Assembly: GCA_944331935.1 (NCBI GenBank)
Contig: CALVIV010000001.1
Span: 9,968-73,967 of the forward strand
Length of the DNA stretch: 64,000 nt
Direction: 5' to 3'
Source: an uncultured Bacilli bacterium
GTDB lineage: Bacteria; Bacillota_I; Bacilli_A; RF39; UBA660
The notes beneath the pieces were generated by a model. The model was not told the DNA's origin, searched no databases, and worked only from the letters and a program-made list of their open reading frames with translations. The position numbers and the translations under genes were made by a program. Below, piece by piece: positions 1,585 to 25,061 of this stretch; position 1 is the first letter of the stretch; each line of letters opens with the position of its first letter.

Positions 1585-1598
1585 ATAAGAGAAAGAGC

Positions 1599-2828: not shown

Positions 2829-2864
2829 AAAATCATCCTCCTCTTGTCATCTATATTATAACAC

Positions 2865-4156: not shown

Positions 4157-4187
4157 ATTTAAACCTCCTAAAAGCTCATAACAAAAA

Positions 4188-6087: not shown

Positions 6088-6198
6088 TCCTCATTTCTCT
6101 ACTAACATTATACTAAATTATGGAAATATTTAAACCCTTTAATTGAAAAGTATCTAATATATTGATATAATTTAATAAAGGAAAGGGAAGTAGAGGAT

Positions 6199-7443: not shown

Positions 7444-7548
7444 AAGACATATAGTAAGTAACAAGTTAAAGCAGTTTTACACTTATTATGTAAAATATAC
7501 TACTAAATTATTAGTATTTATGTTATAAATAAAAAAAGGAGGATAATT

Positions 7549-8181: not shown

Positions 8182-8464
8182 TAAAGAATTTAATAATCTA
8201 GTAGAAGCTTATAAAAAACTTACTACTAAAGAAAAACAAGATGAAATTATAAAATTGTTTAAAGAAAATATCGCTGTTTGGGAAAAGTTAAACAATGATA
8301 TAAATAATAATCATAGTCTTTTATTAAATAGAGAAATAATAGATGTAAACAAAGATAATGCTACTTTAGATGATTTTTTAGAAGCTATATTTGTTTATTT
8401 ACATATGCTATCTGATTCTACCGCAAGTTTTGCCGAAAAAATTGCTAATTATTTCTACAAATAA
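8165..8464 (+). CDS. Hypothetical protein.
   Basis: 99-aa ORF overlapping the end of the upstream gene. Confidence 0.3.
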   Translation: MENQNNKEFNNLVEAYKKLTTKEKQDEIIKLFKENIAVWEKLNNDINNNHSLLLNREIIDVNKDNATLDDFLEAIFVYLHMLSDSTASFAEKIANYFYK

Positions 8465-8471
8465 AAATATT

Positions 8472-9152
8472 CTAATCACTAGAATATTTTTTTATATCGT
8501 CTTCATTAAAGCAAAGGCTATCCATTATTTCATTGGCAACTTTTTCCCAATCTTCATAAGTATTAACAGAACAGTTGAACTCAACAGTAACTAATTTATT
8601 ATCAAGAGTAAAGAATCTTATATTATAATATGTATTCGCATCTGTTGCCACTAATCTTGCAAAAGTCTTATCATATTTTTGATATACTCCACTATCTATT
8701 ACAGTCATTCCTGTAAGACCTGCTACTCTATTATTAAGATATGCTTCTAAGCCATCATCAGTCATATCTTCATTAGTAGTACTAACAAAAACATGTTCAG
8801 TATCTGTTTCACTCATAAACACAAGTTCAGGACGATTATTATAATTATATTTACTCTTTAACATCGCTTCATCTAACATTGTAAAAGTATCAGGAACATT
8901 TAAAAAGAAACTACTATCAACTCTATAAGTCTTAAAGTTAATCTCTACTCCATCAACTTCAATTTTTTCTTCCTTCTCTTCAACTTCCTCTTGTTTTATT
9001 TCTTCCTGTTTATTAATTGATTTTATATGATTATCATGAATTATATTAGCAAGAAAGAAAGCAACCACTACTATTACAATAATACCAATAACCCCTAAAA
9101 TAATCTCTTTTCTTTTCATATTTAACACCATAAAAAGTATAACACATAACAA
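8472..9152 (-). CDS. Membrane-anchored hypothetical protein.
   Basis: N-terminal TM helix, a glutamate/lysine-rich linker and a C-terminal globular domain. Confidence 0.35.
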   Translation of the reverse strand: MLCVILFMVLNMKRKEIILGVIGIIVIVVVAFFLANIIHDNHIKSINKQEEIKQEEVEEKEEKIEVDGVEINFKTYRVDSSFFLNVPDTFTMLDEAMLKSKYNYNNRPELVFMSETDTEHVFVSTTNEDMTDDGLEAYLNNRVAGLTGMTVIDSGVYQKYDKTFARLVATDANTYYNIRFFTLDNKLVTVEFNCSVNTYEDWEKVANEIMDSLCFNEDDIKKYSSD

Positions 9153-9154
9153 AC

Positions 9155-9187
9155 AAAAAAAGAAGTCCTAAGACTTCTTTTAAGTTT
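9155..9187 (-). terminator. Rho-independent terminator downstream of tuf.
   Basis: Minus-strand hairpin aagaagtc-ttag-gacttctt followed by a T-run. Confidence 0.5.
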
Positions 9188-9190
9188 CTA

Positions 9191-10381
9191 TTATCCTTCG
9201 ATTTCAGAAACAACACCAGCACCAACAGTACGTCCACCCTCACGGATAGAGAACTTAGTACCTTTTTCAATAGCAATTGGGTGAATTAATTCAACTTCCA
9301 TTGTTACGTTATCACCAGGCATAACCATTTCTACACCTTCTGGTAAAGTAATTACACCAGTAACATCAGTAGTTCTGAAATAGAATTGTGGACGATAGTT
9401 ACTGAAGAATGGAGTATGACGTCCACCTTCTTCTTTACTAAGTACATAAACCTCAGCTTTGAATTTATGATGTGGATGTACACTTCCTGGTTTAGCTAAA
9501 ACTTGTCCACGTTCAACTTGTTCACGAGAGATACCACGAAGTAAAACTCCTGCATTATCTCCAGCTTCTGCAACGTCAAGTTGTTTTCTAAACATTTCAA
9601 TACCAGTAACAACTGTCTTTTGAGTTGGTTTAATACCAACGATTTCAACTTCATCATTAAGTTTTAATTGTCCACGTTCAACACGTCCAGTAACAACTGT
9701 ACCACGACCTGTGATTGTGAAGACATCTTCGATACTCATTAAGAATGGTTTATCAGTATCACGTTCTGGAGTTGGAATCCAAGAATCAACAGCATCCATT
9801 AAATCATAGATAGCTTGAACATACTTAGGATCTCCTTCAAGAGCTTTAAGAGCAGAACCCTTAATGATAGGAGTTTCATCTCCTTCGTAACCATATTCAT
9901 TTAATAAGTCACGAACTTCCATTTCAACTAAATCGATTAACTCATCATCATCAACCATATCACATTTGTTTAAGAATACAACCATACGAGGTACTCCAAC
10001 TTGACGTGATAATAGGATATGTTCACGAGTTTGTGCCATAGCTCCATCTGTAGCAGCAATTACAAGAATTGCACCATCCATTTGAGCAGCACCAGTAATC
10101 ATGTTTTTAACATAGTCAGCATGTCCTGGGCAGTCAACATGAGCATAATGACGTTTTTCAGTTTGGTATTCTACGTGTGCAGTATTAATTGTAATACCAC
10201 GTTCTCTTTCTTCTGGAGCTTTATCAATGTTTGCATAATCTGTAAAATCAGCCCATTCAGGGTTTTTATCATGTAAACATTTAGTAATAGCTGCAGTTAA
10301 TGTAGTTTTACCATGATCTACGTGTCCAATTGTACCAATGTTAACATGTGGTTTTGAACGATCAAATTTTTGTTTTGCCAT
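9191..10381 (-). CDS. tuf: Elongation factor Tu.
   Basis: [28 protein letters not shown]. The likely true start is ATG at 10381, preceded by an AGGAGG RBS. The track ORF extends 9 codons further upstream. Confidence 0.95.
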
Positions 10382-10471
10382 ATTTTTTTCCTCCTCTTTT
10401 AATTTCACTATATATTTTATCTAACAATTAGCAAATTTGCAACTGTTTAGAACTAAATTTATGAGTTTCTT

Positions 10472-12541
10472 TTAATTTCCACTCTTTTTAATGATTTCTT
10501 CAGCAATATTTTTAGGAACTTCTTCATAATGATCAAATGTCATAACAAAGTTTCCTCTACCTTGAGTATTACTACGTAAGTTAGTAGCATATCCAAACAT
10601 TTCAGAAAGTGGAACCATTGCTGATAATTTAACCACATTTCCAAGAGACTCTTGTCCAAGTGGACGTCCACGACGACTAGTTAAGTCTCCCATAACGTTA
10701 CCGAAGTACTCATCAGGTGTCGTAACATCAACTTTCATGATTGGTTCAAGAAGTACTGCTTGACACTTATTCTTAGCTTCTTTTAAAGCCATAGATGCAG
10801 CAATCTTAAATGCCATTTCACTAGAATCAACATCATGATATGAACCATCAAATAATGTTGCTTTAATATCAATCATAGGGTATCCAGCTAAAATACCAGT
10901 TTGCATTGCTTCTTGTAATCCCTTATCAACAACAGGAATATATTCACGAGGAACAACACCACCAACGATTTGATCAACAAATTCATATCCTTTATCAGGA
11001 TTTGGTTCAAACTTAATCCAAACGTGACCATATTGTCCACGACCACCAGATTGTTTAATGTATTTACCTTCACAATCAGCTGCTTGTTTAATAGTCTCAC
11101 GATAAGCAACTTGTGGAGCACCAACGTTCGCTTCAACATGGAACTCACGTTTCATACGATCAACTAAGACATCAAGGTGTAACTCACCCATACCAGCGAT
11201 AACAGTTTGACCTGTTTCATGATCAGTATGTACTCTAAATGTTGGATCTTCTTCAGCAAGTTTTTGTAATGCAAGTGCCATCTTATCTTGATCTGCTTTA
11301 CTCTTAGGTTCTACAGCAAGTTGAATAACTGGCTCAGGAACAATAAGTTTCTCTAAGATAATAGGTTTCTTCTCATCACATAATGTATCTCCTGTAGTAG
11401 TATTCTTAAGACCAACAGCAGCAGCTATATCACCAGTATATACATCACTAATCTCTTTACGAGTATTAGCATGCATCTGTAAGATACGACCAATTCTTTC
11501 CTTAGCATCTTTAGTAGAGTTAAGTACATAACTACCACTAGCTAAATGACCTGAATAAACTCTAAAGAATGTTAAACGTCCAACGAATGGATCAGTCATA
11601 ACTTTAAATGCTAATGCACTAAATGGTTCACTATCACTTGGATGACGAACTTCTTCTTCTCCCTTTAAGTTATGTCCCTTAATAGATGGAATGTCTAAAG
11701 GGCTTGGTAAGTAATCAATAACAGCATCAAGTAATGGTTTAATACCCATATTACCTAAAGCAGTACCACACATAACTGGGAAGAACTTAGCTGCAAGACA
11801 TCCTTTACGAATAGCACGTTTAATCATTTCTACTGTTACTTCTCCACCTTCAAGATATGTTTCCATCATCTCATCATCGAATTCAGCAACAGCATCAAGT
11901 AAATCAGCATGTTTCTCTTCTGCTAAATCTTTTAAGTCTGCAGGAATTTCTATTTCTTTAGACTCTTCAGCCTCAGTACCATCAAAAAGATAAGCTTTCA
12001 TAGTAACTAAATCAATAACACCATGGAACTCAGCTTCAGCACCAATAGGCCATTGTATAGGTTTAGCATTAACTCCTAAACGGTCTTTAATAGTTTTTAA
12101 ACTATATTCAAAGTTAGCTCCCATCTTATCCATTTTATTTGCAAAAATCATTCTAGGAACTTTAAATTCATCAGCTTGTCTCCAAACTGTTTCCATTTGT
12201 GGTTCAACACCAGCTTGAGCATCAAGCAAAGCTACAGAACCATCTAAAACTCTTAAACTACGACTAACTTCGATAGTAAAGTCTACGTGTCCTGGAGTAT
12301 CGATAATATTGTAACGATATCCTTTCCAATATGCAGTAGTAGCTGCACTTGTTATGGTAATACCACGCTCTTTTTCTTGCTCCATCCAATCCATTTGACT
12401 AGCACCTTCATGAGTCTCACCAATCTTATGGATTTTACCAGTAAGATATAGAATACGTTCAGTACAAGTAGTCTTACCAGCATCGATATGAGCCATAATT
12501 CCAAAGTTTCTTGTTTTTTCTAATGACGTATCTCTTGCCAT
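10472..12541 (-). CDS. fusA: Elongation factor G.
   Basis: [14 protein letters not shown] and full-length EF-G similarity. Sits in the str operon context. Confidence 0.95.
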
Positions 12542-12553
12542 AATTTCTCCTTC

Positions 12554-13021
12554 CTACCAACGATAATGAGCATAAGCCTTATTAGCTTCAGCCATTCTGT
12601 GGGTATCTTCACGTTTTTTAACAGCAGCACCTGTACCATTAGATGCATCTATTATTTCATTAGCTAAATTATCAGCCATTCCACGTCCTCCACGTTTTCT
12701 AGAAAATCCAACTAACCAACGTAAAGCTAAAGCTTCAGCTCTTGCTGGAGTAACTTCTTGAGGAACTTGATAATTAGCTCCACCTACTCTTCTAGATTTA
12801 ACTTCTAAAGCAGGCTTAATATTTTCCATCGCTTCATTAAAAGCATCTATTGCATCTTTACCAGTTTTCTCTTTAACGATATTAAAAGCATCATAAACGA
12901 TAGTTTGAGCAACACCTTTTTTACCATCAAGCATAACTGTATTAATAAGTTTAGCAACAGTCTTAGACTTATATATAGGATCTGGTAAAATATCTCTTTT
13001 AACAGCACGTCTTTTACGCAT
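12554..13021 (-). CDS. rpsG: 30S ribosomal protein S7.
   Basis: 155 aa matching S7. Lies between rpsL and fusA. Confidence 0.95.
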
Positions 13022-13045
13022 AATTTATCCTCCTTCCAATTCTAA

Positions 13046-13097
13046 ATATTATTTCTTAGGCTTTTTAGCACAGCTTATTTCTTAGGCTTTTTAGCCC
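13046..13097. repeat. Imperfect 22-26 bp tandem duplication of the rpsL 3' end.
   Basis: ttatttcttaggctttttagcacagc followed by ttatttcttaggctttttagccccg. The first copy lies just past the rpsL stop codon. Confidence 0.6.
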
Positions 13098-13497
13098 CGT
13101 ATTTACTACGGCCTTGTTTTCTATCTTTAACTCCTGCTGTATCTAGTGCGCCACGAATAATATGATAACGAACTCCGATTAAGTCCTTAACACGTCCACC
13201 ACGAACTAATACAACACTATGCTCTTGTAAGTTATGTCCAATACCAGGAATATAAGTATCTACTTCCTTACCATTACTTAATCTAACACGAGCATACTTA
13301 CGTAAAGCTGAGTTTGGTTTCTTAGGTGTCTTAGTACCAACACGAGTACAAACTCCACGTTTTTGAGGAGATGGATTATTTGTTTGTTTTCTTCTAATTG
13401 TATTAACTCCTACTAAAAGTACTGGAGCCTTACTCTTACGAGTCTTACTTCCTCTACCTTTACGAACTAATTGATTTACTGTAGGCATTGTAATCAT
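13075..13497 (-). CDS. rpsL: 30S ribosomal protein S12.
   Basis: [12 protein letters not shown]...KKPNSALRK matches S12. Confidence 0.95.
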
Positions 13498-13627
13498 TAA
13501 CTCCTTTCTTTACACATATCCAGGTGTATCATTTTTACTTCTAAATAAAGTTTTGCCCATGGCAAAACCAAATTTAAATCAGCATACATACTATAACATC
13601 ATACTAAGGCTAATGTCAATAATTTTC

Positions 13628-14821
13628 TCAAATTTTTCTAATCAAGGATTTACCTTCTTTAAAATTACAATCAGAAGCACAAGTATAATCAGGAAAGGTA
13701 CACCTAGCACCTTTAGAATATTTTATGATATCTGATGCTAAAGGATGATTTTTTTCTTCTAAAGCTTTTTTATAATCAAGTAAAGTATCTCTAGTTTGTC
13801 TCATAATCTCAAGTTGAGCAGCAGAACAAAGTCTTTCTTTACATTTTAAAATAAAATCTTCATATTTACCTTCTTCACTAATTCTAACAAGCTCACCTTG
13901 TGGAACAATATCAGAAACACTTTTTATATCATTAAGCCACTCTACAGTTAAAACCTTATCATCACTAATAATAGGTGGAACAAAATAATCTTTTTGTTCT
14001 AATCTCTCCATCTGATAATCAAGTGTTCTATGTCGTTGTGCCTGAGCAAGTTCTGCAAAAGAACCATTATAAACAGTTGAATATACATCTCCAAAATATA
14101 TTTCTTTAGACTCTAAATCATTCCCAAATAAAGATAATGACCGAGCTTTATCATTTTTTAACAATCCTTCTTCTAATACATTTAAATTTCCTAATTCATC
14201 ATAAAAGTCTTGCATTTTACTAGCTAAACTATTTTGAAAATAATCATTCTTATCTGCTTTATCTATATAATTTTTCATAAAAAATGCGATATAATTAATC
14301 TGTCTAAAAGAAGTAGAATAAATCATTTGTGTAGGCATAAATACAGAAACTAAGTATCTTGCATTCTCTTGAGCAAGTTTAGTTATCTTTGAATCATTAA
14401 AAACATCCCCATACTGCTCTTTAATTTTCACTTTAAATATTTCTATCCACTTATTATAAAGTTCTTCTTCCCTTAAAGTTATCGCATCATCTGTTCTAAC
14501 TACAGGAGTATATCTAGCAGATTTTTCACTGGTAGTATATTGATGTTCATTATTAATAACCATCGCTAATATTTTAGGAATATTTTGCATATTAAAATTA
14601 ATTGTAATATGATCATAAACACTATGATGACCATTATTAAGAGTCATATTAACTCGTCTCATTGTCTTTTTTTCATCTTCATTCAAAAGATGAAAAAATC
14701 CTTCCTTATCATAGCAAACCCCAGCAATTTTCCCAGATAGTTTAATAGCACTATCCTTAGCAAAAGTTCCATTCTTTTTCAAAAAATAATTTGGTAAAAT
14801 ATCAATTTTTAGTTTACTCAT
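13628..14821 (-). CDS. ThyX-like (flavin-dependent thymidylate synthase family) protein, divergent and unusually long.
   Basis: GHHSVYDHITINFNMQNIPKILAMVINNEHQYTTSEKSARY follows the ThyX pattern (H-x-S-V..H ... S-x-x-S-x-R-Y), but the canonical RHR is replaced by NEH. A separate QRHR occurs about 150 aa later. 397 aa. Confidence 0.4.
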   Translation of the reverse strand: MSKLKIDILPNYFLKKNGTFAKDSAIKLSGKIAGVCYDKEGFFHLLNEDEKKTMRRVNMTLNNGHHSVYDHITINFNMQNIPKILAMVINNEHQYTTSEKSARYTPVVRTDDAITLREEELYNKWIEIFKVKIKEQYGDVFNDSKITKLAQENARYLVSVFMPTQMIYSTSFRQINYIAFFMKNYIDKADKNDYFQNSLASKMQDFYDELGNLNVLEEGLLKNDKARSLSLFGNDLESKEIYFGDVYSTVYNGSFAELAQAQRHRTLDYQMERLEQKDYFVPPIISDDKVLTVEWLNDIKSVSDIVPQGELVRISEEGKYEDFILKCKERLCSAAQLEIMRQTRDTLLDYKKALEEKNHPLASDIIKYSKGARCTFPDYTCASDCNFKEGKSLIRKI

Positions 14822-14877
14822 AATATATCCTCCCTAAATCTCCCCTATTACTCTTTAATTAATTATATCACAACAAT

Positions 14878-15272
14878 TTAAACTCTTCCATAAGTTTCTA
14901 CATAAGGTTTTTTCAAGTATTCTTTAAAAATTATTTTATTATAAATATTCATTTGTAATTTATAACACTTTCCATGAGAACTATGAGCAAGCCAAGAATT
15001 CCATTCTAACACAGTCTTATCTAAATCAAGAAGACCTCTTTCATATAACATATTCCAACGTCTTACTTTTCTTTTAATCTTTTTAATACTTCTTTTCCTA
15101 AGTAATCTATAACTCTCATATATCCTAAATCCACAAAAATCAAGTCCCATCTTATTAGGATAGTATCTACTTTTATTATTAAGTTCTAAATGAAGTCTTG
15201 TCCCTACATACTTCTCTACAACTTTAAGAACTTCCTTGGCTTCCTCTTTAGTTCTAACAAACATAATAAAGT
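14878..15272 (-). CDS. DGR reverse transcriptase, exon 2 (thumb/C-terminal part). It is joined to exon 1 by splicing of the group II intron.
   Basis: The reading frame is open from 15272 (ac|ttt att atg...). After splicing it reads ...YVRYMD-D-FIMFVRTKEEAKEV..., restoring YxDD and the downstream RT thumb. Confidence 0.7.
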
Positions 15273-17192
15273 ATCGAGTAGAAATCTATGTCACCATATA
15301 TTCCCCTCACGGATCCGTACGTGCAGCTTTCCCGCATACGGCTCTTCATAATATAGATTTTAATTATTCCTCAAATTGCTTCCAAATTCTATCATATATA
15401 TTTACTTTTATATATGGCTTAGGTATATTATATTCAACTAAAAGCTTTTTAAATTCTTCTTTAGTATAACTTCGTCTTTGACTTCTTCTATTTAACCATT
15501 TAAATAGAATTTGTAAAGAACGGTAGTAGAATTTGCAAATAGAATGGTAGTTGTCTGTTATTCCAAAATAATTATAATGTCCAATTAATTTTCTTTTAAC
15601 AGTGTTCATGATATCTTCTATTGGCATAGCTCTATTGTCTTTACACCACATATTAAACTCTACTAGTTTCTTATTAAATTTACTTCGCGAAGTTTTACGT
15701 TTAACTCTAAATTTACCTTTCTTGCTTTTACTACAGTAATGTGTAAATCCTAGAAAATCAAAAGTTTCAGGTTTTCCAACTTTTGTATTATTAAGAGCAA
15801 ACCTTCCAAAGGCAATCAGTCTAGTTTTATCCGGCGCAAGTTCTAATCCTACTTCTTTAAGTCTTTTGGGTAGTAGGACTTTATAAAAGTATTCCGCCTC
15901 ATCCTTATGTTGAAAACAACATATAAAGTCATCTGCATAATTAATTATGCTTGCAAAACCTCTTAATTTTGGTTTGACATATTTTTCAAACCATTTTATA
16001 AGACTGTAGTACATGTAGATGTTCGCTAGTATTGGACTCACTATAGAACCTTGTGGTGTTCCATATTCTGAGACATAGAATTGTCCTTTATCGAGTACAC
16101 CTGCATTAAGAAACTTTCTTACAAGTATCAAAATGTTAGTATCTTTAACATGTAGTTTTAGACATTTCATTAAATTGTCATGATTAATGTTATCAAAGAA
16201 GCCTTTAATATCAGCTTCAACAACATAGCTTGTATAATTCCATTCTATATCATATGCTACTTGTGCTAAGGCTTCATGACAACCCAAGCTTTTCCTAAAG
16301 CCATACATATTATTACTAAATCTCGGTTCAAATATAGCTTCAAGTACTTTCTTCAAGGCTAATTGTACTATTTTGTCCTCAAAATTTGCTATTGCTAAAC
16401 TTCTTAATTTACCATTAGATTTAGGGATATAAACTCGTCTTGATGGCATAGGCTTGTATTCCTTTGTTTTAAGGCTATTTACTAAATTTTCTAGGTTTTG
16501 AGGTAAGTTCCTCAAATATTCATCTTGAGTTACTTTATCAATACCTACTGCTTTATTACCATTTAATTCATCAAAACACTCTTTTAGTAATTCTCTATCA
16601 ATCATATGATAAATTGAAGTAAATATTATTTTATTGTTCTCTTTTGCAATTTGATTTATTCTTGTTATTTTCTGTGTCATTATTTATCACTCCTTGTATA
16701 GTGTAACGTTTCCTTTTAACAATTTCTATATTATGTGAACCCCTTCCCTACTTTGCATTTATTTATGCAATATTAACAGTACTATGAGTTCATCTGACTA
16801 CCTATATTTCATTTGATATATTTATTTCTTATTTCATCATACTCTGTACCAATTGGCTCACTGCCTACTCTTGGACTAAGAGAAAATATAGGTTCTCACT
16901 GTTCATCGAATAAACATTGTATATCATGATTAGGTCTTACAGACTCCGTGGAAGTTTGATAATACTTCCCATAACATATTATCAAATATCGTATTCCGTT
17001 TGGACGACAACGTCTACACTTCCAATCTATATCGATACGTTTCGAAGCTCAATACTAACCCTAATACCTAACTGTCTACGCTTAATCATAAACGTTACCA
17101 TTTATGACCCAAGACTCGTTACTAGATGTGACGGGTATCACTTTCTAGACAGGAGTTCCACCTGCTAATTTATTCGACCTACACAGTCGCAC
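15273..17192 (-). mobile_element. Bacterial group II intron (about 1.92 kb) inserted in the DGR RT gene.
   Basis: The 5' end is GTGCGACTGTGTAGG, matching the GUGYG consensus. A domain V-like GAGCCGTATGCGGGAAAGCTGCACGTACGGATC lies about 60 nt from the 3' end. The intron ends ...CGAT (AY). An RT/maturase ORF sits in domain IV. Confidence 0.8.
15364..16680 (-). CDS. Group II intron-encoded reverse transcriptase/maturase, lacking an endonuclease domain.
   Basis: RT motifs GTPQGSIVSPILANIYM and INYADDFICCF (YADD), and a maturase domain X (LIGHYNYFGITDNY). The 438-aa protein ends right after domain X with no HNH/En domain. Confidence 0.85.
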   Translation of the reverse strand: MTQKITRINQIAKENNKIIFTSIYHMIDRELLKECFDELNGNKAVGIDKVTQDEYLRNLPQNLENLVNSLKTKEYKPMPSRRVYIPKSNGKLRSLAIANFEDKIVQLALKKVLEAIFEPRFSNNMYGFRKSLGCHEALAQVAYDIEWNYTSYVVEADIKGFFDNINHDNLMKCLKLHVKDTNILILVRKFLNAGVLDKGQFYVSEYGTPQGSIVSPILANIYMYYSLIKWFEKYVKPKLRGFASIINYADDFICCFQHKDEAEYFYKVLLPKRLKEVGLELAPDKTRLIAFGRFALNNTKVGKPETFDFLGFTHYCSKSKKGKFRVKRKTSRSKFNKKLVEFNMWCKDNRAMPIEDIMNTVKRKLIGHYNYFGITDNYHSICKFYYRSLQILFKWLNRRSQRRSYTKEEFKKLLVEYNIPKPYIKVNIYDRIWKQFEE

Positions 17193-17859
17193 CATCCATG
17201 TATCTAACATAGTACTTAATATGAAGTTTCTCTTTAACATAATGGTCAAGTTCATTCATATAGATATTAGCAAAGAACTGTGACGTATAATTACCAATTG
17301 GAAGCCCCACTTCTTCACCATCATTATATATAAATTCATAAGTTAAGTCTAAAAGTTTCTCATCTTTAATAAATTTATTCAAAATATTATATAAAACATC
17401 TTTATCTATATTATAAAAAAATCCCTTTATATCACATTTAACAATATAATAAGCACCATACTTATTCTTCATCTTCTGCATATATTCCTGTGCCCTATCT
17501 ACCGCTTTATGGGTACCTCTTCCTTCTATACAAGCATAAGAATCATTAATAAAGCGAGGCACAATATAAGGTTTAATAAATTCATGAATATACCACTGAT
17601 GGACTATTCTATCAACATAAGGTAAAGCTCTAATAATTCTTTCTTTAGGTTCATATATTTTAAACGTTCTATATTTTCCCATTTTATATGTACCATTCTT
17701 TAATTTCTTATAAAGATTAACTATATTAGTCTCTAAATCTACTTCAAACTTTAAAACTTCCCTAGAATATCTCTTAGTCTTACTAGCACGTTCATGTGCC
17801 TCCAACAAAGCTTCAACAGTTAAATGTTTATCAAAAGCATTTCTTATCGTGTGAGGCAT
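17193..17859 (-). CDS. DGR reverse transcriptase, exon 1 (fingers/palm up to YMD).
   Basis: The DGR-specific motif LPIGNYTSQFFANIYMNELDHYV (I-G-x-x-x-S-Q instead of the group II Q-G-x-x-x-S-P), then ...YVRYMD immediately before the intron 5' splice site. Overlaps the avd end by 16 nt. Confidence 0.75.
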
Positions 17860-18239
17860 GACCTAATCCATCCTCCATTAAGATTAGAAATATTAGTAAG
17901 TTTCTTACTCCAAGCTGTATAATTTTTAGAATTAATATACTTTTTCTTATGAGAAACTCTAATCAATACTTTAATAATTTTAAAATTAGCATCAAGCTCA
18001 TTTAAGTAGGAAAGTCTTTTTTTCTTGTCAAACTCTTTCTGAGCATAAATAATATCCTTAAGTCCTTCATAAGTAGCATTTTTAATATCTTGAGCCAATG
18101 AAAAACGTTCACTCTTAGGATATTTCAAAAGTATTGTAAGAGTATAATAAATAAGTTCTACATATTGCTTATAAATAACTAAGCCCTCTAAATCATCCAT
18201 ATAGTCGCCCTCCAAAATATCATATTTTCTAGTATTCAA
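17844..18239 (-). CDS. avd: Avd-like accessory variability determinant (small helical-bundle protein).
   Basis: About 118-131 aa, predicted all-helical and basic. Positioned between the TR and the DGR RT. The track start is TTG; an ATG (MDDLEG...) lies at 18200. Confidence 0.55.
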   Translation of the reverse strand: MNTRKYDILEGDYMDDLEGLVIYKQYVELIYYTLTILLKYPKSERFSLAQDIKNATYEGLKDIIYAQKEFDKKKRLSYLNELDANFKIIKVLIRVSHKKKYINSKNYTAWSKKLTNISNLNGGWIRSCLTR

Positions 18240-18364
18240 AAAATCTACTAACTAGAAAAAATATTACTTCTATTTTTATTCGCAAACGAATTGGAAAAAA
18301 CTCTCTATGATATTTATTTTTTATTATCTAAAATAATAACTTAAATAATCATTACATCATAGTT

Positions 18365-18480
18365 CTCATCACGAGGCGGAACGAGCCATTAACATTAGGA
18401 CCACCATTGTTACCGTTAGTGTTGAAATAGAAAACTCCCGCTATATTACCAGGATTAGAAGAATGGTTACCGCCGCGCAC
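18365..18480 (-). repeat. DGR template repeat (TR unit 1), cognate to the VR at 21261-21378.
   Basis: 108/116 identical to the VR. Seven of the 8 mismatches fall where TR has A on the minus strand (VR has G/T/C there). The TR frame encodes many Asn (AAY) codons; the VR has Y/A/V/S at those sites. Confidence 0.8.
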
Positions 18481-18718
18481 TAATCAATAAAACAAAAGAT
18501 ATATTAAGTTTCTCCCAATAAAAAAGTACCATAAAAATTAAAAGTAAACAATATATTTAAACAAAATTAAACCCACATATTTTCTAGTATTCGTATAACT
18601 ACTAACTAGAAAGATACTACTTCTTTTTTTATTCATAAAATGAATTGGAAAAAACTTTATATGATATTTATTTTTTATTATCTAAAATAATAACTTAAAT
18701 AATCATCACATCATAGTA

Positions 18719-18828
18719 CTCATCACGAGGCGGAACGAGTTGTTACTGTTCACCCCACCAAGTAAAGTGGTACGATTAAAGTTGAATACACCTGCATTAG
18801 TATTATTGTTATAGTTACCGCCGCGCAC
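18719..18828 (-). repeat. TR-like cassette, unit 2.
   Basis: Same boundaries. The inner sequence encodes VRGGNYNNNTNAGVFNFNRTTLLGGVNSNNSFRLVM, with in-frame stops on both sides. Confidence 0.6.
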
Positions 18829-19049
18829 CAACTATTACAAAAGGTTTCACAAATATTTAAAGTTTTTCCCATCTAAAAAGTATCACAATTTAAAATAGAT
18901 TACAACTAAAAATTTCTAGTATTCGTAAACCTACTAACTAGAAATAAATTACTTCATTCTTTCATTCTTATCGAAATGGAAAAAACTCTCTATGATATTC
19001 ATTTTTTATTATATCTATAATAACTTAAATAATTCTTATATCATAGTCT

Positions 19050-19159
19050 CTCATCACGAGGCGGAACGAATTGTTAATGTTACCAGCGGCCTGAGTAGTA
19101 GTACGATTAAAGTTGAAAACACCTGCATTAGTAGTATCGTTATAGTTACCGCCGCGCAC
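19050..19159 (-). repeat. TR-like cassette, unit 3.
   Basis: Encodes VRGGNYNDTTNAGVFNFNRTTTQAAGNINNSFRLVM. The boundary has one substitution (ggaacgaa). Confidence 0.6.
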
Positions 19160-19405
19160 CAACTAAATCATATTACAAAATAACTTTTAAGTTTTTCCCA
19201 ACAAAAAAGTACCATAAATTACTAAGAAAAACAATATATATAAATAAATAATTTTAAACACAATACTTTCTAGTATTCGAAAAACCTACTAACTAGAAAC
19301 ATACTACTTCATTTTTTCATTCATAAAATGAATTGGAAAAAACTTTCTATGATATTTATTTTTTATTATATACATAATAACTTAAATAATTCTTATATCA
19401 TAGTC

Positions 19406-19513
19406 TCTCATCACGAGGCGGAACGAGCCATTGTTGTTACCATTACCAAGATTCCAGGTATTGAAGTTGAAAATACCTGCATTAGAAGTGTTGTTATTGT
19501 TACCGCCGCGCAA
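19406..19513 (-). repeat. TR-like cassette, unit 4.
   Basis: Encodes LRGGNNNNTSNAGIFNFNTWNLGNGNNNGSFRLVM, with 11 Asn codons. Confidence 0.6.
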
Positions 19514-19758
19514 CAACTAAATCACATCACAAAATAACTTTTAAGTTTCTCCCAACAAAAAAGTACCATAAATTACTAAGAAAAACAATCTATATAAACA
19601 AATAGTTTTAAACACATACTTTCTAGTATTCGAAAAACCTACTAACTAGAAATATATTACTTCATTTTTTATTCATAAAATGAATTGGAAAAAAACTCTC
19701 TATGATAAATATTTTTTATTATATCTATAATAACTTAAATAATTCTTATATCATAGTT

Positions 19759-19868
19759 CTCATCACGAGGCGGAACGAGTTGTTACTGTTAGGACCACCA
19801 AGATTAATAGTTGCGTTAAAGTTGAAAACACCCGCATTAGTAGTATTATTATAACCACCGCCGCGCAC
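19759..19868 (-). repeat. TR-like cassette, unit 5.
   Basis: Encodes VRGGGYNNTTNAGVFNFNATINLGGPNSNNSFRLVM. This is the track ORF 19746..19940. Confidence 0.6.
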
Positions 19869-20078
19869 CATAACATAAATAAAACGGTATTTAAAAGTTT
19901 TTCCCAAACAAATTTTATCAAAACTACATAACAAAAACAAGGCTAAGAGCCTTGCCTATGATTACTGATATTCGCCCAAATAAACTACTAACCATCATCA
20001 TATATATAAGTTTACTTATAAAAGTAGGAATTAAATCTCTAGGATATTAATTTTTTATTATATACACAATAACTTAAA

Positions 20079-20208
20079 TTACGATTATATCGTAGTCACG
20101 CTCATCACGAGGCGGAACGAGCCTTACGAGCATCGTATCAAAATAGAGCAACAAAGAATATTGACGAAATCAATTACACAAAAAAAACCACCGCCGCGCA
20201 ACAACCAA
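20079..20208 (-). pseudogene. Degenerate VR remnant (unit 6) with its own downstream hairpin.
   Basis: Carries the VR-type flanks (gtcacgctcatcacgaggcggaacgagcc and ccgccgcgcaacaacca) of the live target gene. The inner 65 bp are unrelated and hit an in-frame stop. A hairpin tacgat-ata-atcgta sits where the live VR has tagtcc-gtaa-ggacta. Confidence 0.5.
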
Positions 20209-20394
20209 AATATTTGGAAGCAACAAAAGAGCGAAGTACCAACATCAAGAGAAAATGGTACAATGATTTAATCCCTATCATCTAATTATTAGATGACAAT
20301 TTCATTGTACAAAAACTAAAATTAAATAACAATGAAAGTTTTTTCCAGTTTTACTATCGGTTAATATGATATAATTAACATTGAAGGAGGAAGT

Positions 20395-21054
20395 ATGGAT
20401 ACAGCAGTTTTAAACAATATTACTTATGGTATGTATATAGTAACTACAAAAGATAATAATAAAAATGTAGGCTGTATTATTAATACAGTAATGCAAATAA
20501 CATCAAAAAATCCTATAATATCTATAAGTTTAAACAAAGAAAACTATACAAATAAAGCATTAAAAGAAAACAAAAAATGTGCAATATCTATTTTAACAGA
20601 AGAAACAAAGCAAAAAACAATTTCAACATTTGGATATTTTTCTTCAAAGGACATAGACAAATTCAAAGATATAGAATGGGAGGAAATAAATAACTTACCT
20701 GTAGTATTAGAAAATATATCAGGATATATAATAGGAGAAGTTATAGATATAATAGATGTTAATACTCATGATGTATTTTTAATAAAGATTAAAAACACAA
20801 AACAAACATCTAATAAAACACCAATGACATACAAATACTATCATGAAGTTTTAAAAGGTAAATCACCTTCTAAAGCACCAACATATAATGAAACAAAGGA
20901 GAAGGAAAATATGAAAAAAGGAAATAAATATAAATGCACAATCTGTGGTTATATATATGATGATGAAAAAGAAGACATAAAATTTGAAGACTTACCCGAT
21001 GCTTGGAAATGTCCAATATGTGGAGTAGGTAAAGATAAATTTATTAAAATATAA
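20395..21054 (+). CDS. Flavin reductase-like domain fused to rubredoxin (high-molecular-weight rubredoxin type).
   Basis: An N-terminal FMN-binding split-barrel flavin reductase-like region, then a C-terminal rubredoxin with CTICGYIYD...[22 protein letters not shown]. Confidence 0.6.
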
Positions 21055-21058
21055 TTAA

Positions 21059-21098
21059 GTCCGTGGCTTATCAAAAGAAAAGCCACGGACTTTTTTCT
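21059..21098 (+). terminator. Rho-independent terminator of the rubredoxin gene.
   Basis: A perfect hairpin gtccgtggc...gccacggac followed by TTTTTTCT. Confidence 0.7.
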
Positions 21099-21111
21099 AC
21101 TTCTTTACAAA

Positions 21112-21162
21112 TAATCAAAAAAAACGAAAATCGCCTCGGGGCAAAAAAGAGGGCCCCGAGGC
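21112..21162 (-). terminator. Rho-independent terminator of the DGR target gene.
   Basis: Hairpin gcctcggggc...gccccgaggc, with a T-run on the minus strand (A-run 21111-21132 on plus). Confidence 0.6.
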
Positions 21163-21238
21163 TAATCATCACGAATAATTCGACAATATTCTTTCTTTCT
21201 CTATTTTTACCATCTTATTTTGCTCAGTGAAGAAGAGT

Positions 21239-21254
21239 TAGTCCTTACGGACTA
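21239..21254 (-). promoter_or_regulatory. GNRA-type hairpin immediately 3' of the VR, embedding the target-gene stop codon.
   Basis: Minus strand tagtcc-gtaa-ggacta, a 6-bp stem with a GTAA loop. The TAA stop is within the loop. The TR copies have no such hairpin. Confidence 0.55.
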
Positions 21255-23125
21255 GTCACGCTCATCACGAGGCGGAACGAGCCATTAACACTAGGACCAC
21301 CACTGCTACCGACAGCGTTGAAATAGAAAACTCCCGCTATATTACCAGCATTAGAAGAATGGTAACCGCCGCGCAACAACCATGGGTACTCCTCACTTAC
21401 CATCGTCCTAGCATCATTATACCATCCTGATGTCTCACTTAATCCATGTGATAAACATTCACTTCCATTACATGCTGTACTAGGATTATTACTTGTATAC
21501 TTGTTATAATACTTTGCTTCTGGCATACTCTCAAATCCACTTGAAGCTACCATATCGTTATAGTTTCCCATAACATACTCCCAAGCTCCTCCTGACATAT
21601 CATATACACCATAGATTGTTCCCGTTGTACTGGCTCCTACTCCTTTTCCTGTCATTCCTTCTTCTGTTCTTATATTATTATCATATGTATATTGACATCC
21701 ATAATCTGTATTTGCATTACTTGGACTTCCATAACTACATCCCGTTATATAACTATCTGATTTATTTTGATATACTTCCTTTTCTGCACCTGTATAGTTC
21801 TCATTTCCTAATTTCCCATATTTACTTTGACTTAAATAACTTACTACTGCCCATTCATTATTTTTCATAGAATGTGAGTTCATATTTGTACTAAATCCAT
21901 ATCTATTCCCAGCCGCACTCACTTTTGTCGCTACTGCATGAATATTACTTACATTTATATTTCTCCAACTTGTTACATTTGGTTTTATCATCGCATCAAG
22001 GTTAGTTACATTTCCTCCGCCATTACTTGCACTTGGATTACTACTACTTGTCTCAAACTTTCCTACCCAAATTCCAGAAAGTTCCTCTCCATCATAAGTA
22101 AATGCATCTGGAGTATACCAATTTTTAGGTTTTTCCGTTGCAAGATATTTTGCAGTACCTGTATCTTTTTCATCTTTACTTATAAACTTAATATCAATCT
22201 CTCCTGGTAAAGCTGCTGTTGGATTACTGTTCAAATACACTCCTCTTTTTCCGTAATAAGTTGTTCCATTCTCACTTGCTATTGTATAACTATATCTCGG
22301 TATCCATACCCACATTGTCTCTACATCATCCATATTTATCTCTGTTCCAACTGGAGCACTTGTGTATTCAGCTAACTTATCACTTTTTACAGTAACAGCA
22401 TTAGCCCATATACCCATATCATAGTTATACCAACCATTACTAGTATCCGTTTTAACCCAATTATAACCATCATGTTTAATTGCAATCATATTACTATCCA
22501 TATCCGGAGCATTAACTGCATCATTTCCTTGTTCAAAATCAGGGTCATCTACTTGTTGTGTTGCAAATACTTTAAGTTGTCCTAAATACACTTTACCCAT
22601 CGCTTCATTAGTAGCATTTATATTTAACCAAACTTTTAACTCTCCATCAATTACTTCTTTAGAATCTATAACTCCATAACTTATAATTGATGAATCAGAA
22701 AGACTTCCTGTAAATGTTCTATCTCCCATTTTAAGTTCATATCTTACATCTCTAGGATCTAACAATTCACAACTTCCTCCATCTGTTGTTTGACAATTAG
22801 ATAAAGCTTCTTCATCATCTACTAATGAAAGTGTATAATATAATCCTATATTACTTTTATTCTCAAGTGAAAACTGATAAGGTGTACCACTTTTTCCATC
22901 ATCATCATATGTTGGAATAACATTCACAAGTTGTATACCATCATTTTTTTCATTTAAGACTAAATCTATATTACCAACTATAATTTGAACATCCTTTTTT
23001 CCTTTTAAAGTTGTCCTAAGCCAAGCATATGAAACACCAATAATTATAATTAAAAGAACTACAAGAGTAATAATAGCCACCTTTTTCTTATTCTCTCTCA
23101 AAGTTCTCCCTATATTTTTAACCAT
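21245..23125 (-). CDS. DGR target (variable) protein. It has an N-terminal signal anchor and a C-terminal FGE-sulfatase/C-type-lectin-fold domain carrying the VR.
   Basis: The N-terminal TM is VAIITLVVLLIIIIGVSYAWL. GVYDMSGGAWEYV is an FGE/CLec-fold hallmark. The C-terminus reads LRGGYHSSNAGNIAGVFYFNAVGSSGGPSVNGSFRLVMSVTSP. Confidence 0.7.
   Translation of the reverse strand: MVKNIGRTLRENKKKVAIITLVVLLIIIIGVSYAWLRTTLKGKKDVQIIVGNIDLVLNEKNDGIQLVNVIPTYDDDGKSGTPYQFSLENKSNIGLYYTLSLVDDEEALSNCQTTDGGSCELLDPRDVRYELKMGDRTFTGSLSDSSIISYGVIDSKEVIDGELKVWLNINATNEAMGKVYLGQLKVFATQQVDDPDFEQGNDAVNAPDMDSNMIAIKHDGYNWVKTDTSNGWYNYDMGIWANAVTVKSDKLAEYTSAPVGTEINMDDVETMWVWIPRYSYTIASENGTTYYGKRGVYLNSNPTAALPGEIDIKFISKDEKDTGTAKYLATEKPKNWYTPDAFTYDGEELSGIWVGKFETSSSNPSASNGGGNVTNLDAMIKPNVTSWRNINVSNIHAVATKVSAAGNRYGFSTNMNSHSMKNNEWAVVSYLSQSKYGKLGNENYTGAEKEVYQNKSDSYITGCSYGSPSNANTDYGCQYTYDNNIRTEEGMTGKGVGASTTGTIYGVYDMSGGAWEYVMGNYNDMVASSGFESMPEAKYYNKYTSNNPSTACNGSECLSHGLSETSGWYNDARTMVSEEYPWLLRGGYHSSNAGNIAGVFYFNAVGSSGGPSVNGSFRLVMSVTSP
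21261..21378 (-). repeat. DGR variable repeat (VR) at the 3' end of the target gene.
   Basis: Matches TR unit 1 (18365-18480) with adenine-specific mismatches. Same boundary motifs. Confidence 0.8.
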
Positions 23126-23198
23126 TAAACTTTATCTACCTCCTTATATTATCAAATTATTCTAATTAAATAATAACATTTTTTGGGAAAATATGAAA

Positions 23199-23240
23199 GA
23201 ATTTTGTCACAAATTTTGTCACAAATTTTGTCGAATTTTA
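23199..23240. repeat. Tandem 11-12 bp direct repeat (aaattttgtcac, 3 copies) in the promoter region of the DGR target gene.
   Basis: ttttgtcacaaattttgtcacaaattttgtcgaatttt lies 70-110 nt upstream of the target start codon. Confidence 0.5.
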
Positions 23241-23249
23241 TTTACTATT

Positions 23250-23281
23250 AATTAACAAAAAGAAAAAGACTCTAAAAGTCT
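23250..23281 (-). terminator. Rho-independent terminator of the kinase gene (23281..24936).
   Basis: Hairpin agactctaaaagtct followed by a T-run on the minus strand. Confidence 0.55.
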
Positions 23282-24936
23282 TAATCATGATAACAACTAC
23301 CACCAATAAACTCTCTTAAAATAGAATCATCTGGAATACTCTCACTTGGTATAGGTAATATAAGCCTTAAGATATTTAAAAGTCTCTTTGCCTCTTCATA
23401 ATAAGCTGAATCTTCATCTACTGAATAAAGTAAAGGTTCAACATAAGTTTTTAATACACCCAACTCATATATTAAAGCTGTATTAATAGTAACATCCGCT
23501 TCATCTTGATAAGGGAATATATATTTCTCTTCTCCACTTCTAACATTATTCCAAACTCTCAAAGTATCTACTACATTATATCCTCTAGTCCTATTATCTC
23601 TAATTATTCTTCTTAAAAGTCTATTATCTGTAGTAGGAAAACGATTATGATAATCTATATTAAGTTCTGTCAAAGCTGATAAATATATTTTATATTTATT
23701 TTTAGCAGGTATTTCTTTTAAAACTTTAGGATTAAGGGCATGTATTCCTTCTATTAATAAAACATCATCTTTATCAAGTTTTAACTCTTTAACAAACTCT
23801 TTAACCCCTTCTTTAAAGTTATAGATAGGAGCCATTACATCTTTACCCTCTAATAATTCATTAACTTGTTTAGTAAGTAACTTATTATCAACCGCTTCAA
23901 AACATTCATAATCTTTCTCCCCTTTTTCATTTAAAGGAGTTTTATCTCTATCTACAAAGTAATCATCCATACTAATCATCTTAGGATTAAGTCCAAAACT
24001 CTTTAAATACATACATAGTTTAGTAGTTGTTGTCGTCTTACCACTAGAAGAAGGACCTGCAAGTAATATAATTTTCTTATCTTTTTTATTATCTACTATT
24101 TTTTTAGCAACACCTAAAAGTCTATTACTCTGTAACGTTTCATCTATTCTAATTAAATCAGCTATTTTACCACGACTAACAACTTCATTTAAATCGGCAA
24201 TAGTCTCTATCTTCATTAACTTAGTCCATTCTCTACACTCTTTAAAGACTTTAAACATATTAGGATGATGGACATAAGTTTTAATTTGATTATGAGAATA
24301 CTCTGTAGGAAATTGAAGTACAAATCCATTATCATCTACATAAGTTAGTTTAAACTCTTTTAAACATGAAGTAGAAGGAGGCATCTTACCATAAAAGTAA
24401 TTATAGTAGTTACCTAATCTATAAAGAGTAATAAATGTATTAGTATTATATTTCATTATCTTAGCTTTCGCTAAATCATTAATACTCTCAAAATAATGTA
24501 TAGCAGATATTCTTTCAACACTAACTTTAGTAATAGATAAATCCATCTCTACTAGTTTTAACATCTTTCTAGCAATTGTTTTAAGAATTGTCTCTGTTAA
24601 AGGAAAACTTGTCTTAATATAAATTCCCTTATCTAATGAATGCATTACTACTATATTAGCATCAAGTCCAAATATCTCTTTAACTGCAACTATAAGTAAA
24701 AAAGTTAATCCTGCAATATGGGCTCTATTACCTATTTTAGAATTTAAATCATAAAAGGTTATTCCACAAGAATCATTAACAACATAACTAAGCTCTCTAT
24801 ATACATTATTAACACTTGCTAAAATAATAGGAAAACGATAATCTTTTTGATACTCTTTACTAAGTTGTAATAAAGTTGTTCCAGAAGGAATAGTCTCTTC
24901 TTTACCATTAATTGTTACTTTAACTTCTTCTATCAT
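23281..24936 (-). CDS. Uridine kinase/phosphoribulokinase-family P-loop kinase with an N-terminal TGS-like beta-grasp domain.
   Basis: P-loop LLAGPSSSGKTTTTTKL with ...ISMDDYF, typical of the uridine kinase family. The N-terminal MIEEVKVTINGKEETIPSGTTLLQL is TGS-like. Confidence 0.5.
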   Translation of the reverse strand: MIEEVKVTINGKEETIPSGTTLLQLSKEYQKDYRFPIILASVNNVYRELSYVVNDSCGITFYDLNSKIGNRAHIAGLTFLLIVAVKEIFGLDANIVVMHSLDKGIYIKTSFPLTETILKTIARKMLKLVEMDLSITKVSVERISAIHYFESINDLAKAKIMKYNTNTFITLYRLGNYYNYFYGKMPPSTSCLKEFKLTYVDDNGFVLQFPTEYSHNQIKTYVHHPNMFKVFKECREWTKLMKIETIADLNEVVSRGKIADLIRIDETLQSNRLLGVAKKIVDNKKDKKIILLAGPSSSGKTTTTTKLCMYLKSFGLNPKMISMDDYFVDRDKTPLNEKGEKDYECFEAVDNKLLTKQVNELLEGKDVMAPIYNFKEGVKEFVKELKLDKDDVLLIEGIHALNPKVLKEIPAKNKYKIYLSALTELNIDYHNRFPTTDNRLLRRIIRDNRTRGYNVVDTLRVWNNVRSGEEKYIFPYQDEADVTINTALIYELGVLKTYVEPLLYSVDEDSAYYEEAKRLLNILRLILPIPSESIPDDSILREFIGGSCYHD

Positions 24937-25061
24937 TCTAACACCCTCTTAATTCTATATATGATTATATCAAAATTAACATACAAAGTCTAATAATTTT
25001 GCCACATCTTGTAAGGTATAATTTAAAGTTTATTTGGATATAGTAGAATTAGGTGATAATA

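Follow-up and report, generated by a model that had tools for sequence, protein, structure and literature searches.

Tandem template cassettes of a diversity-generating retroelement in uncultured gut Bacilli: a probable library for switching at one variable region

Why would a diversity-generating retroelement (DGR) carry a row of different templates beside one variable region (VR)? This question is raised by a locus in a 64-kb stretch of DNA from an uncultured Bacilli bacterium (contig CALVIV010000001.1, positions 9,968 to 73,967), which we refer to as the window and number from its first letter. On the minus strand, which is the functional strand of the locus, five tandem units of ~350 bp occupy positions 18206-19905 and a sixth cassette makes six; each resembles a DGR template repeat (TR). 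The locus itself is a DGR, as every hallmark that was open to testing was found: a DGR-type reverse transcriptase (RT), the accessory protein Avd, a TR-VR pair with adenine-biased differences, a C-terminal VR, a 3′ homing motif with a VR hairpin, and a structured template RNA. As set out below, the array is probably a library of functional template cassettes that are served by one Avd-RT pair and switch at the VR, a reading that we base on comparisons of sequences between related genomes.

The original prediction had described a tandem array of template-like units upstream of avd, and this description was borne out. There are seven copies each of the boundary motifs CTCATCACGAGGCGGAACGA and ACCGCCGCGCA in the window, and all of them lie on a single strand, where shuffled sequences lead one to expect none. 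Tandem Repeats Finder (TRF) delineated a repeat at 18222-19870 with a period of 354 and 4.8 copies. The predicted count of five holds for the cassettes that we call U1 to U5 but not for the total, because the sixth cassette, U6, with its template at 20101-20200, had been overlooked. Numbered from avd and all on the minus strand, U1 spans 18206-18516 (upstream arm 18506-18516, template 18365-18479, spacer 18206-18364), U2 spans 18562-18870 (upstream arm 18860-18870, template 18719-18827, spacer 18562-18718) and U3 spans 18897-19199 (upstream arm 19189-19199, template 19050-19158, spacer 18897-19049). They are followed by U4 at 19248-19553 (upstream arm 19543-19553, template RGGNNNNTSNAGIFNFNTWNLGNGNNNGSFRLVM at 19407-19512, spacer 19248-19406) and U5 at 19606-19905 (upstream arm 19895-19905, template RGGGYNNTTNAGVFNFNATINLGGPNSNNSFRLVM at 19759-19867, spacer 19606-19758). 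The avd gene lies directly downstream of U1, the spacer of which ends just before the avd ribosome-binding site.

U1 to U5 and the single VR have the 5′ boundary GCGCGGCGG and the 3′ boundary TCGTTCCGCCTCGTGATGAG in common, and TCGTTCCGCCTCGTGATGAG is present at all seven sites (U1 to U6 and the VR). The predicted identity of the boundaries with those of the VR thus stands, except that U3 deviates at the 21st base of the 3′ motif. When read in the VR frame on the minus strand, U1 to U5 translate to RGG-[N-rich]-AG(V/I)F(Y/N)FN-[N-rich]-SFRLVM, with 8-12 AAY codons (AAC or AAT) per 34-37 codons, no stop codons and 29-37% A in their interiors; by comparison, the VR has four Asn residues and 20% A. 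This confirmed the anticipated VR-like frame and richness in AAC/AAT codons, and the array contains no open reading frame (ORF) of more than 69 aa. Pairwise identity amounts to 54-83% for the template interiors and to 77-91% for the ~160-nt spacers of U1 to U5, so the spacers are the better conserved part.

The VR, 114 nt with the shared boundaries, is located at 21261-21375 on the minus strand, at the end of a target gene (21245-23125, minus strand) that was delineated from its ORF and translation and encodes a protein of 626 aa with the C-terminus ...SFRLVMSVTSP*. The VR derives from U1, the avd-proximal cassette and its cognate TR: the two differ at 8 positions, 7 of which are template adenines (P ~2e-4). 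U2 to U5, on the other hand, are merely 51-58% identical to the VR, in agreement with the prediction that only the avd-proximal unit matches it. Six nucleotides downstream of the 3′ motif, which ends in GTGATGAG, the VR is followed by the hairpin TAGTCCGTAAGGACTA (21239-21254, minus strand), a target-recognition hairpin of the VR type. This hairpin is kept beside the VRs of relatives and is absent from TR-type units, while U6 has a weaker hairpin at equal spacing.

The evidence that carries our reading came from relatives. When one genome per species was scanned for the 20-nt homing motif, 34 relevant loci (designated by L numbers) were obtained from ~20 metagenome-assembled genomes (MAGs) of uncultured gut Bacilli or 'Tenericutes', including Candidatus Onthousia; a 35th locus with the motif, in a Parvibaculum MAG, was unrelated. 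Two of these loci could be compared closely with the window. Ahead of the VR, the target gene is 99.8% identical to that of the window in L032 (Ca. Onthousia excrementipullorum) and 98.3% identical in L003. From the VR as far as U6, these relatives agree with the window at 99.2-99.4% of positions, and U5 and U4 are 100% identical in L003. In a three-way alignment, the window, L032 and L003 show 100% identity for at least 350 nt ahead of the VR and for ~200 nt after it, but the segments that the shared boundaries enclose are unrelated: the VR is of the U1 type in the window (114 nt), of the U4 type in L032 (105 nt) and of the U6 type in L003 (97 nt). All 16 mismatches between the L032 VR and its own U4-type cassette are at adenines (16/16; P ~7e-10), which marks this VR as a genuine product of mutagenic homing from another cassette rather than a misassembly. 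Cassette switching at one orthologous VR within the clade is thus supported, and so, by comparison among genomes, is the earlier suggestion of a library of alternative templates for the same or paralogous VRs.

The position of the donor within the array also varies between genomes. It is the last cassette in the window and in L019/L021, where 14/15 and 15/15 mismatches are at A, and the first one after U6 in L001 (17/17 at A). On contig CALVQK010000020.1 the donor is approximately the 20th of 26 units (cassette at ~2139 in L020; 5/5 mismatches at A), and in CALVIR it is a satellite cassette upstream of the target (15/15 at A). Array cassettes furthermore match VRs that are remote from the array. 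CATZLO has two such VRs (L015 and L025), which lie on contigs other than that of the array and share a match to one cassette, TR2127 of L028, with 15/21 and 13/17 mismatches at A, respectively. In the complete 1.5-Mb genome OZ006970, a VR that lies 776 kb away corresponds to one of the cassettes in the array, all mismatches being at A (14/14). The earlier proposal that units serve as templates for VRs elsewhere was therefore upheld in part, insofar as remote VRs in relatives are templated by array cassettes. At the protein level, some homologous targets, P0002 among them, end in VRs that resemble mutated U5- or U2-type cassettes, and it is hinted that U2-, U3- and U5-type cassettes are in use. 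P0008, considered as a further truncated U6-type VR, proved uninformative, as its contig turns to unrelated sequence right after the 5′ boundary.

A spacer profile search was used to count the units of each array. It gave 3 units in L019 and L021, 5-6 in L001, L003, L008, L013 and the window, and at least 9 in L006. The longest run, on contig CALVQK010000020.1 at positions 1-16000 (the adjacent tiles L023 and L020), comprises 26 tandem cassettes, of which 1 is of the U6 type and 25 are of the TR type; their 3′ motifs vary (GTGATGAG, GTGATGGG, GTGAAGAG and others). The TR-type cassettes number 72, with 62 distinct sequences among them, and 71 of these 72 follow the VR frame without a stop codon; their mean Asn content is 33%, versus 10% in the VRs. 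Between their boundaries they measure 69-90 nt in steps of 3 nt, forming nine length classes, and the retention of the frame through all nine is not what one would expect of inert duplicates. The same ordered array was found in independent assemblies, including long-read ones.

In two relatives, a solitary 'satellite' cassette consisting of template plus spacer sits just upstream of the target and outside the main array, at position 1176 of L014 and position 1682 of L005; the L014 satellite corresponds to ~25.2 kb on contig CALVIR010000002.1. A scan of viral contigs for the homing motif gave no match, and a single metagenome scan with the VR 3′ flank returned only L036, one unrelated VR of the remote type.

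Importantly for a library of functional templates, the conserved part of each unit appears to be an RNA structure. An upstream arm, GGGA(G/A)AAACTT, lies ~35 nt upstream of each template and pairs with the spacer arm (G/A)AGTTTTTTCC; the resulting duplex of 10-11 bp between the upstream and downstream arms was present in ~85 units, which represent 20 loci. Units of the U6 type have concerted changes in the two arms, which read GGGATTAAATC and GATTTAATTCC. Covariation was counted in a MAFFT alignment of 78 units from relatives, over five helices: the stop duplex, P1 and the helix P0 that surrounds it, a small hairpin with an A-run behind it, and a long 3′ hairpin. At the proposed partners 93.7% of the cells pair, as compared with 49-58% when the partners were slid by 1-3 columns, and 23 pairs change on both sides as compared with 7-14 after sliding; none of 500 shuffles reached the observed values. 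The stop duplex itself shows 94.7% pairing, and double-sided changes affect 8 of its 11 pairs. A single-sequence fold of U1 recovered the proposed helices with an ordinary energy (z = -0.87), and the structural claim therefore rests on the covariation.

This layout agrees with the elements described by the Ghosh laboratory for the DGR RNA of Bordetella phage BPP-1, in which a stem-loop comes just after the TR, sequences upstream and downstream of the TR form a duplex, and an adjacent stem-loop is followed by adenosines, an arrangement that was also predicted in 207 other DGRs (bioRxiv 10.1101/2023.10.23.563531). All six spacers moreover gave a weak, in-register match to the Rfam family RT-14 (RF02921), at 23.9-36.3 bits against a gathering score of 48.1 bits; since they fall below that threshold, we call the spacers RT-14-like and not members of the family. 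RT-14 belongs to a set of RNA motifs associated with RTs that Weinberg et al. 2017 (PMC5737381) described; these authors proposed some of the motifs as DGR spacers, RT-10 being the BPP-1 spacer. Every unit spacer aligns to the two hairpins of the RT-14 model and to its conserved internal loop GUUAGUAG...CGAAUAC, yet the spacers are without most of the 5′ helix of the model. Taken together, these observations identify every unit as an entire DGR RNA module that combines a stop duplex with stem-loops and an A-run.

Two further features of the units were observed. In every template and in the VR, the 5′ boundary (GCGCGGCGG) is complementary to the 3′ boundary (CCGCCTCGTG), for instance 18469-18479 with 18365-18384, and in the single-sequence fold of U1 this boundary helix closes the template into a loop. 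In addition, a motif T(A/G)TG(A/G/T)TA(A/C) (TNTGNTA), which resembles an extended -10 element, is found ~10 nt upstream of the upstream arms, for example at 19555-19570, and is conserved before most TR-type units, also in relatives (alignment A2, columns ~36-46).

On this basis the following mechanism can be proposed. Each ~350-bp unit would give rise to a self-contained DGR RNA in which the upstream arm is followed by a template of ~105-115 nt and then by the spacer. The downstream arm of the spacer would pair with the upstream arm to form a cis-priming duplex of the 'stop' type, followed by a stem-loop with an A-run and the long 3′ hairpin. Because all templates and the VR carry an identical 5′ boundary and 3′ homing motif, cDNA from any cassette could replace the VR of the adjacent target, or of paralogous targets elsewhere that have matching boundaries. 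Since neither length nor non-adenine scaffold is uniform among the cassettes, diversification would have two layers: the choice of cassette would set the loop length, in steps of 3 nt, and the non-adenine scaffold residues, and adenine mutagenesis would then operate inside the chosen cassette. We infer that switching proceeds by retrohoming and that all five cassettes U1 to U5 of the window are active.

Conceivably, each template could instead be reserved for a VR of its own, located in a paralogous gene at another site in the genome, so that one cassette serves one target and no switching takes place. Such an arrangement would account for the remote VRs in CATZLO and OZ006970 that have the same boundaries and match array cassettes with an A bias, paralogous target proteins number in the thousands according to our protein search, and DGRs with multiple TRs and multiple VRs have been reported in surveys. 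What it does not accommodate is the presence of three cassette types at one orthologous VR in near-identical genes, the use of a single TR behind both remote VRs of CATZLO, and the sheer number of cassettes, with 25 TR cassettes in CALVQK and more cassettes than detectable VRs in OZ006970. Moreover, the homing boundaries are identical in all cassettes, and nothing visible ties a cassette to one VR. A strict model of one cassette for one VR thus does not fit these data, and we regard dedicated targets as an unlikely explanation of the array.

It could also be argued that only the cassette matching the VR is functional, and that the others are inert, decaying by-products of tandem duplication through unequal crossing-over. 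Tandem repeats readily expand, the content of the array varies among close relatives (U1 and U2 lack a counterpart in L003 and L032), and a few units are degenerate, such as those at 4376 in L012 and at 4228 in L027. Decay is nevertheless hard to reconcile with 71 of 72 cassettes, in 62 distinct sequences and nine length classes, that are in frame and free of stops, with spacer helices that are maintained by compensatory changes, with the retention of 29-37% A and of AAY codons, and with a donor cassette that differs among genomes; this makes inert duplicates very improbable. Least credible of all is the idea that the units are decayed former VRs, that is, 3′ ends of dead target genes, or else an artefact of assembling a hypervariable region. 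The units do share the boundaries and the reading frame of the VR, and U6 has a 3′ flank and a hairpin of the VR type. U1 to U5, however, have TR-type flanks and a full spacer RNA each, they are not preceded by target coding sequence and possess no VR hairpin, which led us to reject the decayed-VR option for these five, and they are rich in adenine where VRs are depleted of it (33% versus 10% Asn). An assembly artefact, in turn, is contradicted by the recurrence of the ordered array in independent assemblies, long-read ones among them.

Several points weigh against a switchable library. The window holds one VR, so that U1 and the VR are the only pair in this genome and use of U2 to U5 is not seen here; the evidence for switching is drawn from MAGs. 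As L003 is a short-read assembly, a k-mer path artefact could conceivably account for its U6-type VR; that the long-read circular genome OZ006970 (L013) likewise has a VR of this type argues against it. The census of VRs in OZ006970, which gave 2 VR-type sites versus 4 TR cassettes plus U6, was made with the exact 20-mer and would miss VRs with diverged 3′ motifs. A promoter scan of the array found 22 sites where 21.4 were expected, which is not above chance. Furthermore, the catalytic motif of the RT in the window is interrupted by an intron and would be inactive unless this is spliced. Lastly, the observed differences could owe something to horizontal transfer of the locus or to homologous recombination among strains that differ in their VRs. 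The block from the target to U4 is 98-100% identical between the window (18206-25000) and L003 or L032, while the kinase-like gene, avd and the RT are 90-93% identical, and U1 and U2 have no counterpart in either relative. This mosaic pattern suggests that strains have recently exchanged a target-array block and that cassettes are gained and lost rapidly.

Cassette U6, the aberrant head of the array, is located at 19935-20275 on the minus strand. Its upstream arm GGGATTAAATC (20265-20275) precedes the template at 20101-20200, which contains a stop codon and is followed by a VR-type 3′ flank, CGTGACTA, and a hairpin (20081-20093), the downstream arm GATTTAATTCC (20027-20037) and a terminator (19935-19957). 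U6 heads the array in 13 genomes examined (window, L001, L003, L004, L006, L008, L012, L013, L023, L027, L028, L032 and L035), and its covarying stop duplex, spacer variant and terminator are all peculiar to it. The template is poor in A and rich in T, and 12 of its 13 versions contain stop codons or a frameshift. The flank CGTGACTA and the hairpin have the spacing seen at VRs.

The proximal-target VR is an exact copy of the genome's own U6 template in L003, in L028 and in the long-read assembly L013, and in L006 it differs from its own U6 by one A-to-G change and one indel in a T-run. Such a U6-type VR truncates the target protein. The 12-14 adenines in U6-type VRs have remained unchanged, which is not what mutagenic homing predicts. 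At the U6 position of L019 (~1666) and L021 (~3360), a cassette was observed with arms, a spacer and a terminator of the U6 type and a TR-like template. This template has 16-17 differences from TR3 of the array, 11 of them at A, and it looks as if the cassette had been the recipient of a mutagenised copy.

The core of the U6 template (20140-20168) is a 29-nt inverted repeat, with 3 mismatches, of an element in the 3′ untranslated region (UTR) of the target gene (21179-21207). The 3′ UTR extends over 21133-21207 on the minus strand, with this conserved 29-nt element followed by an intrinsic terminator at 21133-21162. The two arms are ~1 kb apart in the window and 440-650 nt apart in relatives, and weaker complementarity extends further, at -45 to -66 kcal/mol as compared with shuffle means of -31 to -41. 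Each arm can be read as a sigma70-like promoter, with a TTGACA-like element, a spacer of 16-17 nt and TATTTT. Pairing between U6 RNA and the 3′ UTR was not favoured over two inverted copies of one element, because the differences between the arms in the window are transversions and not compatible with wobble pairing.

U6 may be a null or OFF cassette, a relay between donors and recipients, or a regulatory antisense or promoter pair, or its features may reflect recombination. A more far-reaching proposal is an RT-driven antigenic variation in two layers, in which up to 25 silent cassettes would overwrite one VR, and U6, competent both as donor and as recipient, would write a stop-containing null allele as an OFF state or reset, or would act as a guide or regulator through its inverted repeat with the target 3′ UTR. 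We put this forward tentatively and consider it possible, though on the whole doubtful.

The machinery that would serve the cassettes is encoded next to them. The avd gene for the DGR accessory protein spans 17844-18200 on the minus strand and is recognised by Pfam (bAvd, 2.5e-22) and NCBIfam (DivGenRetAVD, 81.9 bits at a cut-off of 80); it starts with the ATG at 18200, and not with the TTG at 18239 as originally proposed. The DGR RT is split in the window, a feature that was likewise absent from the original prediction. Exon 1 (17193-17859, minus strand) ends with ...YYVRYMD, and the ORF stops there because a group II intron of 1920 nt (15273-17192, minus strand) is inserted in the first Asp codon of the RT motif YMDD. 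The intron begins with GTGCG at its 5′ end, contains an RT/maturase ORF (15364-16680) and scored 138.8 bits with RF02005 (threshold 49) and 52.6 bits with RF00029 (threshold 40); the intron-encoded protein scored 333.7 with TIGR04416 (cut-off 300). When the intron was removed in silico by joining 17193 to 15272, the reading frame was restored, and together with exon 2 (14878-15272, minus strand) this recreates YMDDFIMFV and an RT of 353 aa. Uninterrupted RTs that lack the intron occur in seven relatives.

Since the intron sits in the catalytic motif, DGR activity in this genome would depend on splicing, and a functional RT is presumably made once the intron has been spliced out. The best match of the spliced RT in the PDB was 8ub7, deposited as 'Reverse transcriptase', at 6.9e-46 over residues 5-295, far better than its matches to group II or retron RTs. 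We take 8ub7 to be the bRT of the Bordetella phage DGR. The likely assignment of the RT to the DGR clade is based on this match and on the genomic context.

The target protein combines an N-terminal membrane anchor with a C-terminal variable-protein domain of the C-type-lectin/FGE-like kind. Sequence searches of Pfam, NCBIfam and the PDB did not recognise it, and a match was obtained by a fold search alone. An AlphaFold2 (AF2) model of its last 299 aa, with a predicted TM-score (pTM) of 0.77 and a mean predicted local distance difference test score (pLDDT) of only 68, had TaqVP (5vf4; E 1.7e-4, probability 1.00) as the top fold match in the PDB, followed by Mtd (1yu0). An exact look-up of the target protein of the window returned no record, and the protein search found no near-identical orthologue, the best being 88% identical before the VR. 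The homologues P0105 and P0114 carry a prepilin-type N-terminal methylation domain (PF07963), which hints that part of the target family is displayed on pilus-like fibres.

Two neighbouring features of the target gene were observed. The first, at 23200-23232 in the gap that separates the target from the kinase-like gene and ~75 nt ahead of the target's start codon, consists of 2.8 copies of a 12-nt unit (AATTTTGTCACA on the plus strand, GACAAAATTTGT on the gene strand) at 100% identity and may be an operator or another regulatory repeat. The second, a gene for a flavin reductase-rubredoxin fusion, lies at 20395-21054 on the plus strand, opposite to the DGR, with the VR on one side and the template array on the other. 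It is missing from the relatives with a short distance between VR and U6 (L001, L006, L013, L018, L027 and L028), which indicates that the boundary between these DGR components tolerates an inserted gene.

How does this locus compare with known DGRs? With the canonical element of phage BPP-1 (mtd-VR, avd, TR, spacer, brt) it shares Avd and the RT, the A-specific differences between TR and VR, a VR at the C-terminus of a protein with a C-type-lectin fold, a GC-rich 3′ homing motif followed by a VR hairpin, and a template flanked, within its RNA, by a segment on the upstream side and a structured spacer on the downstream side. It differs from BPP-1 in having six tandem modules of template plus spacer instead of one, with the templates upstream of avd and not between avd and the RT. 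The modules vary in length and scaffold while their homing boundaries are identical, one cassette is aberrant and non-coding, and the RT is split by an intron.

DGRs with more than one TR have been described before, and the original statement that they are not established was too strong. Yan et al. 2019 (PMC6642488) found more than one TR in ~20% of DGRs with multiple VRs, and two TRs with six VRs in Stenotrophomonas sp. SKA14; surveys also list many remote VRs for the DGRs of Treponema and Trichodesmium. The surveyed systems resemble ours in that one RT serves several VRs, a minority have more than one TR, and targets can be remote, as they are in this clade too. In the survey text consulted, however, multiple TRs are tied to 'corresponding VRs' and no tandem arrays are given, while here 3-26 tandem cassettes are found, cassettes outnumber the detectable VRs, and different cassettes have reached one orthologous VR. 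In Wu 2018, Roux 2021, Yan 2019, Nimkulrat 2016, Dore 2024 and Pfreundt 2014, and in non-exhaustive full-text searches, we found no mention of tandem TR-spacer arrays, of TRs in excess of VRs, or of alternative TRs at one VR. What appears to be new, therefore, is the number and arrangement of the templates and the apparent many-to-one relation between templates and VR, the occurrence of multiple TRs as such having been surveyed already.

A functional analogy is offered by antigenic variation with silent cassettes. In the pilS/pilE system of Neisseria and the vls/vlsE system of Borrelia, promoterless, in-frame and stop-free partial cassettes are copied one way into a single expression site. The exchanged segments are bounded by conserved sequences, and transfer takes place by RecA-type gene conversion between DNA copies. 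The DGR arrays likewise present a tandem bank of in-frame, stop-free cassettes directed at one site with conserved bounds. They differ in that the cassettes carry the RNA elements for cis-primed reverse transcription by Avd and the RT, and in that the transferred copies bear adenine-specific mutations. Judged by analogy, this type of antigenic variation is the closest functional counterpart of the proposed library, with reverse transcription replacing gene conversion.

As DGRs are understood, one template is copied and its adenine positions are rewritten on a fixed scaffold, which makes many variants accessible but leaves the target with one loop length and one set of non-adenine residues. If our reading is true, a bank of interchangeable templates would lift this limit, as a single step would suffice to alter loop lengths and framework residues, and reversion of a lineage to an unmutated scaffold would be possible at any time. 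The finding would thereby tie DGR biology to antigenic variation by silent cassettes. U6 poses the question of whether DGRs switch targets off or store variants off-gene. We suggest that surveys counting one TR per RT may overlook arrays of this kind. Finally, a single Avd-RT pair would naturally be able to service many template RNAs, which is of relevance to engineered multiplex mutagenesis with DGRs.

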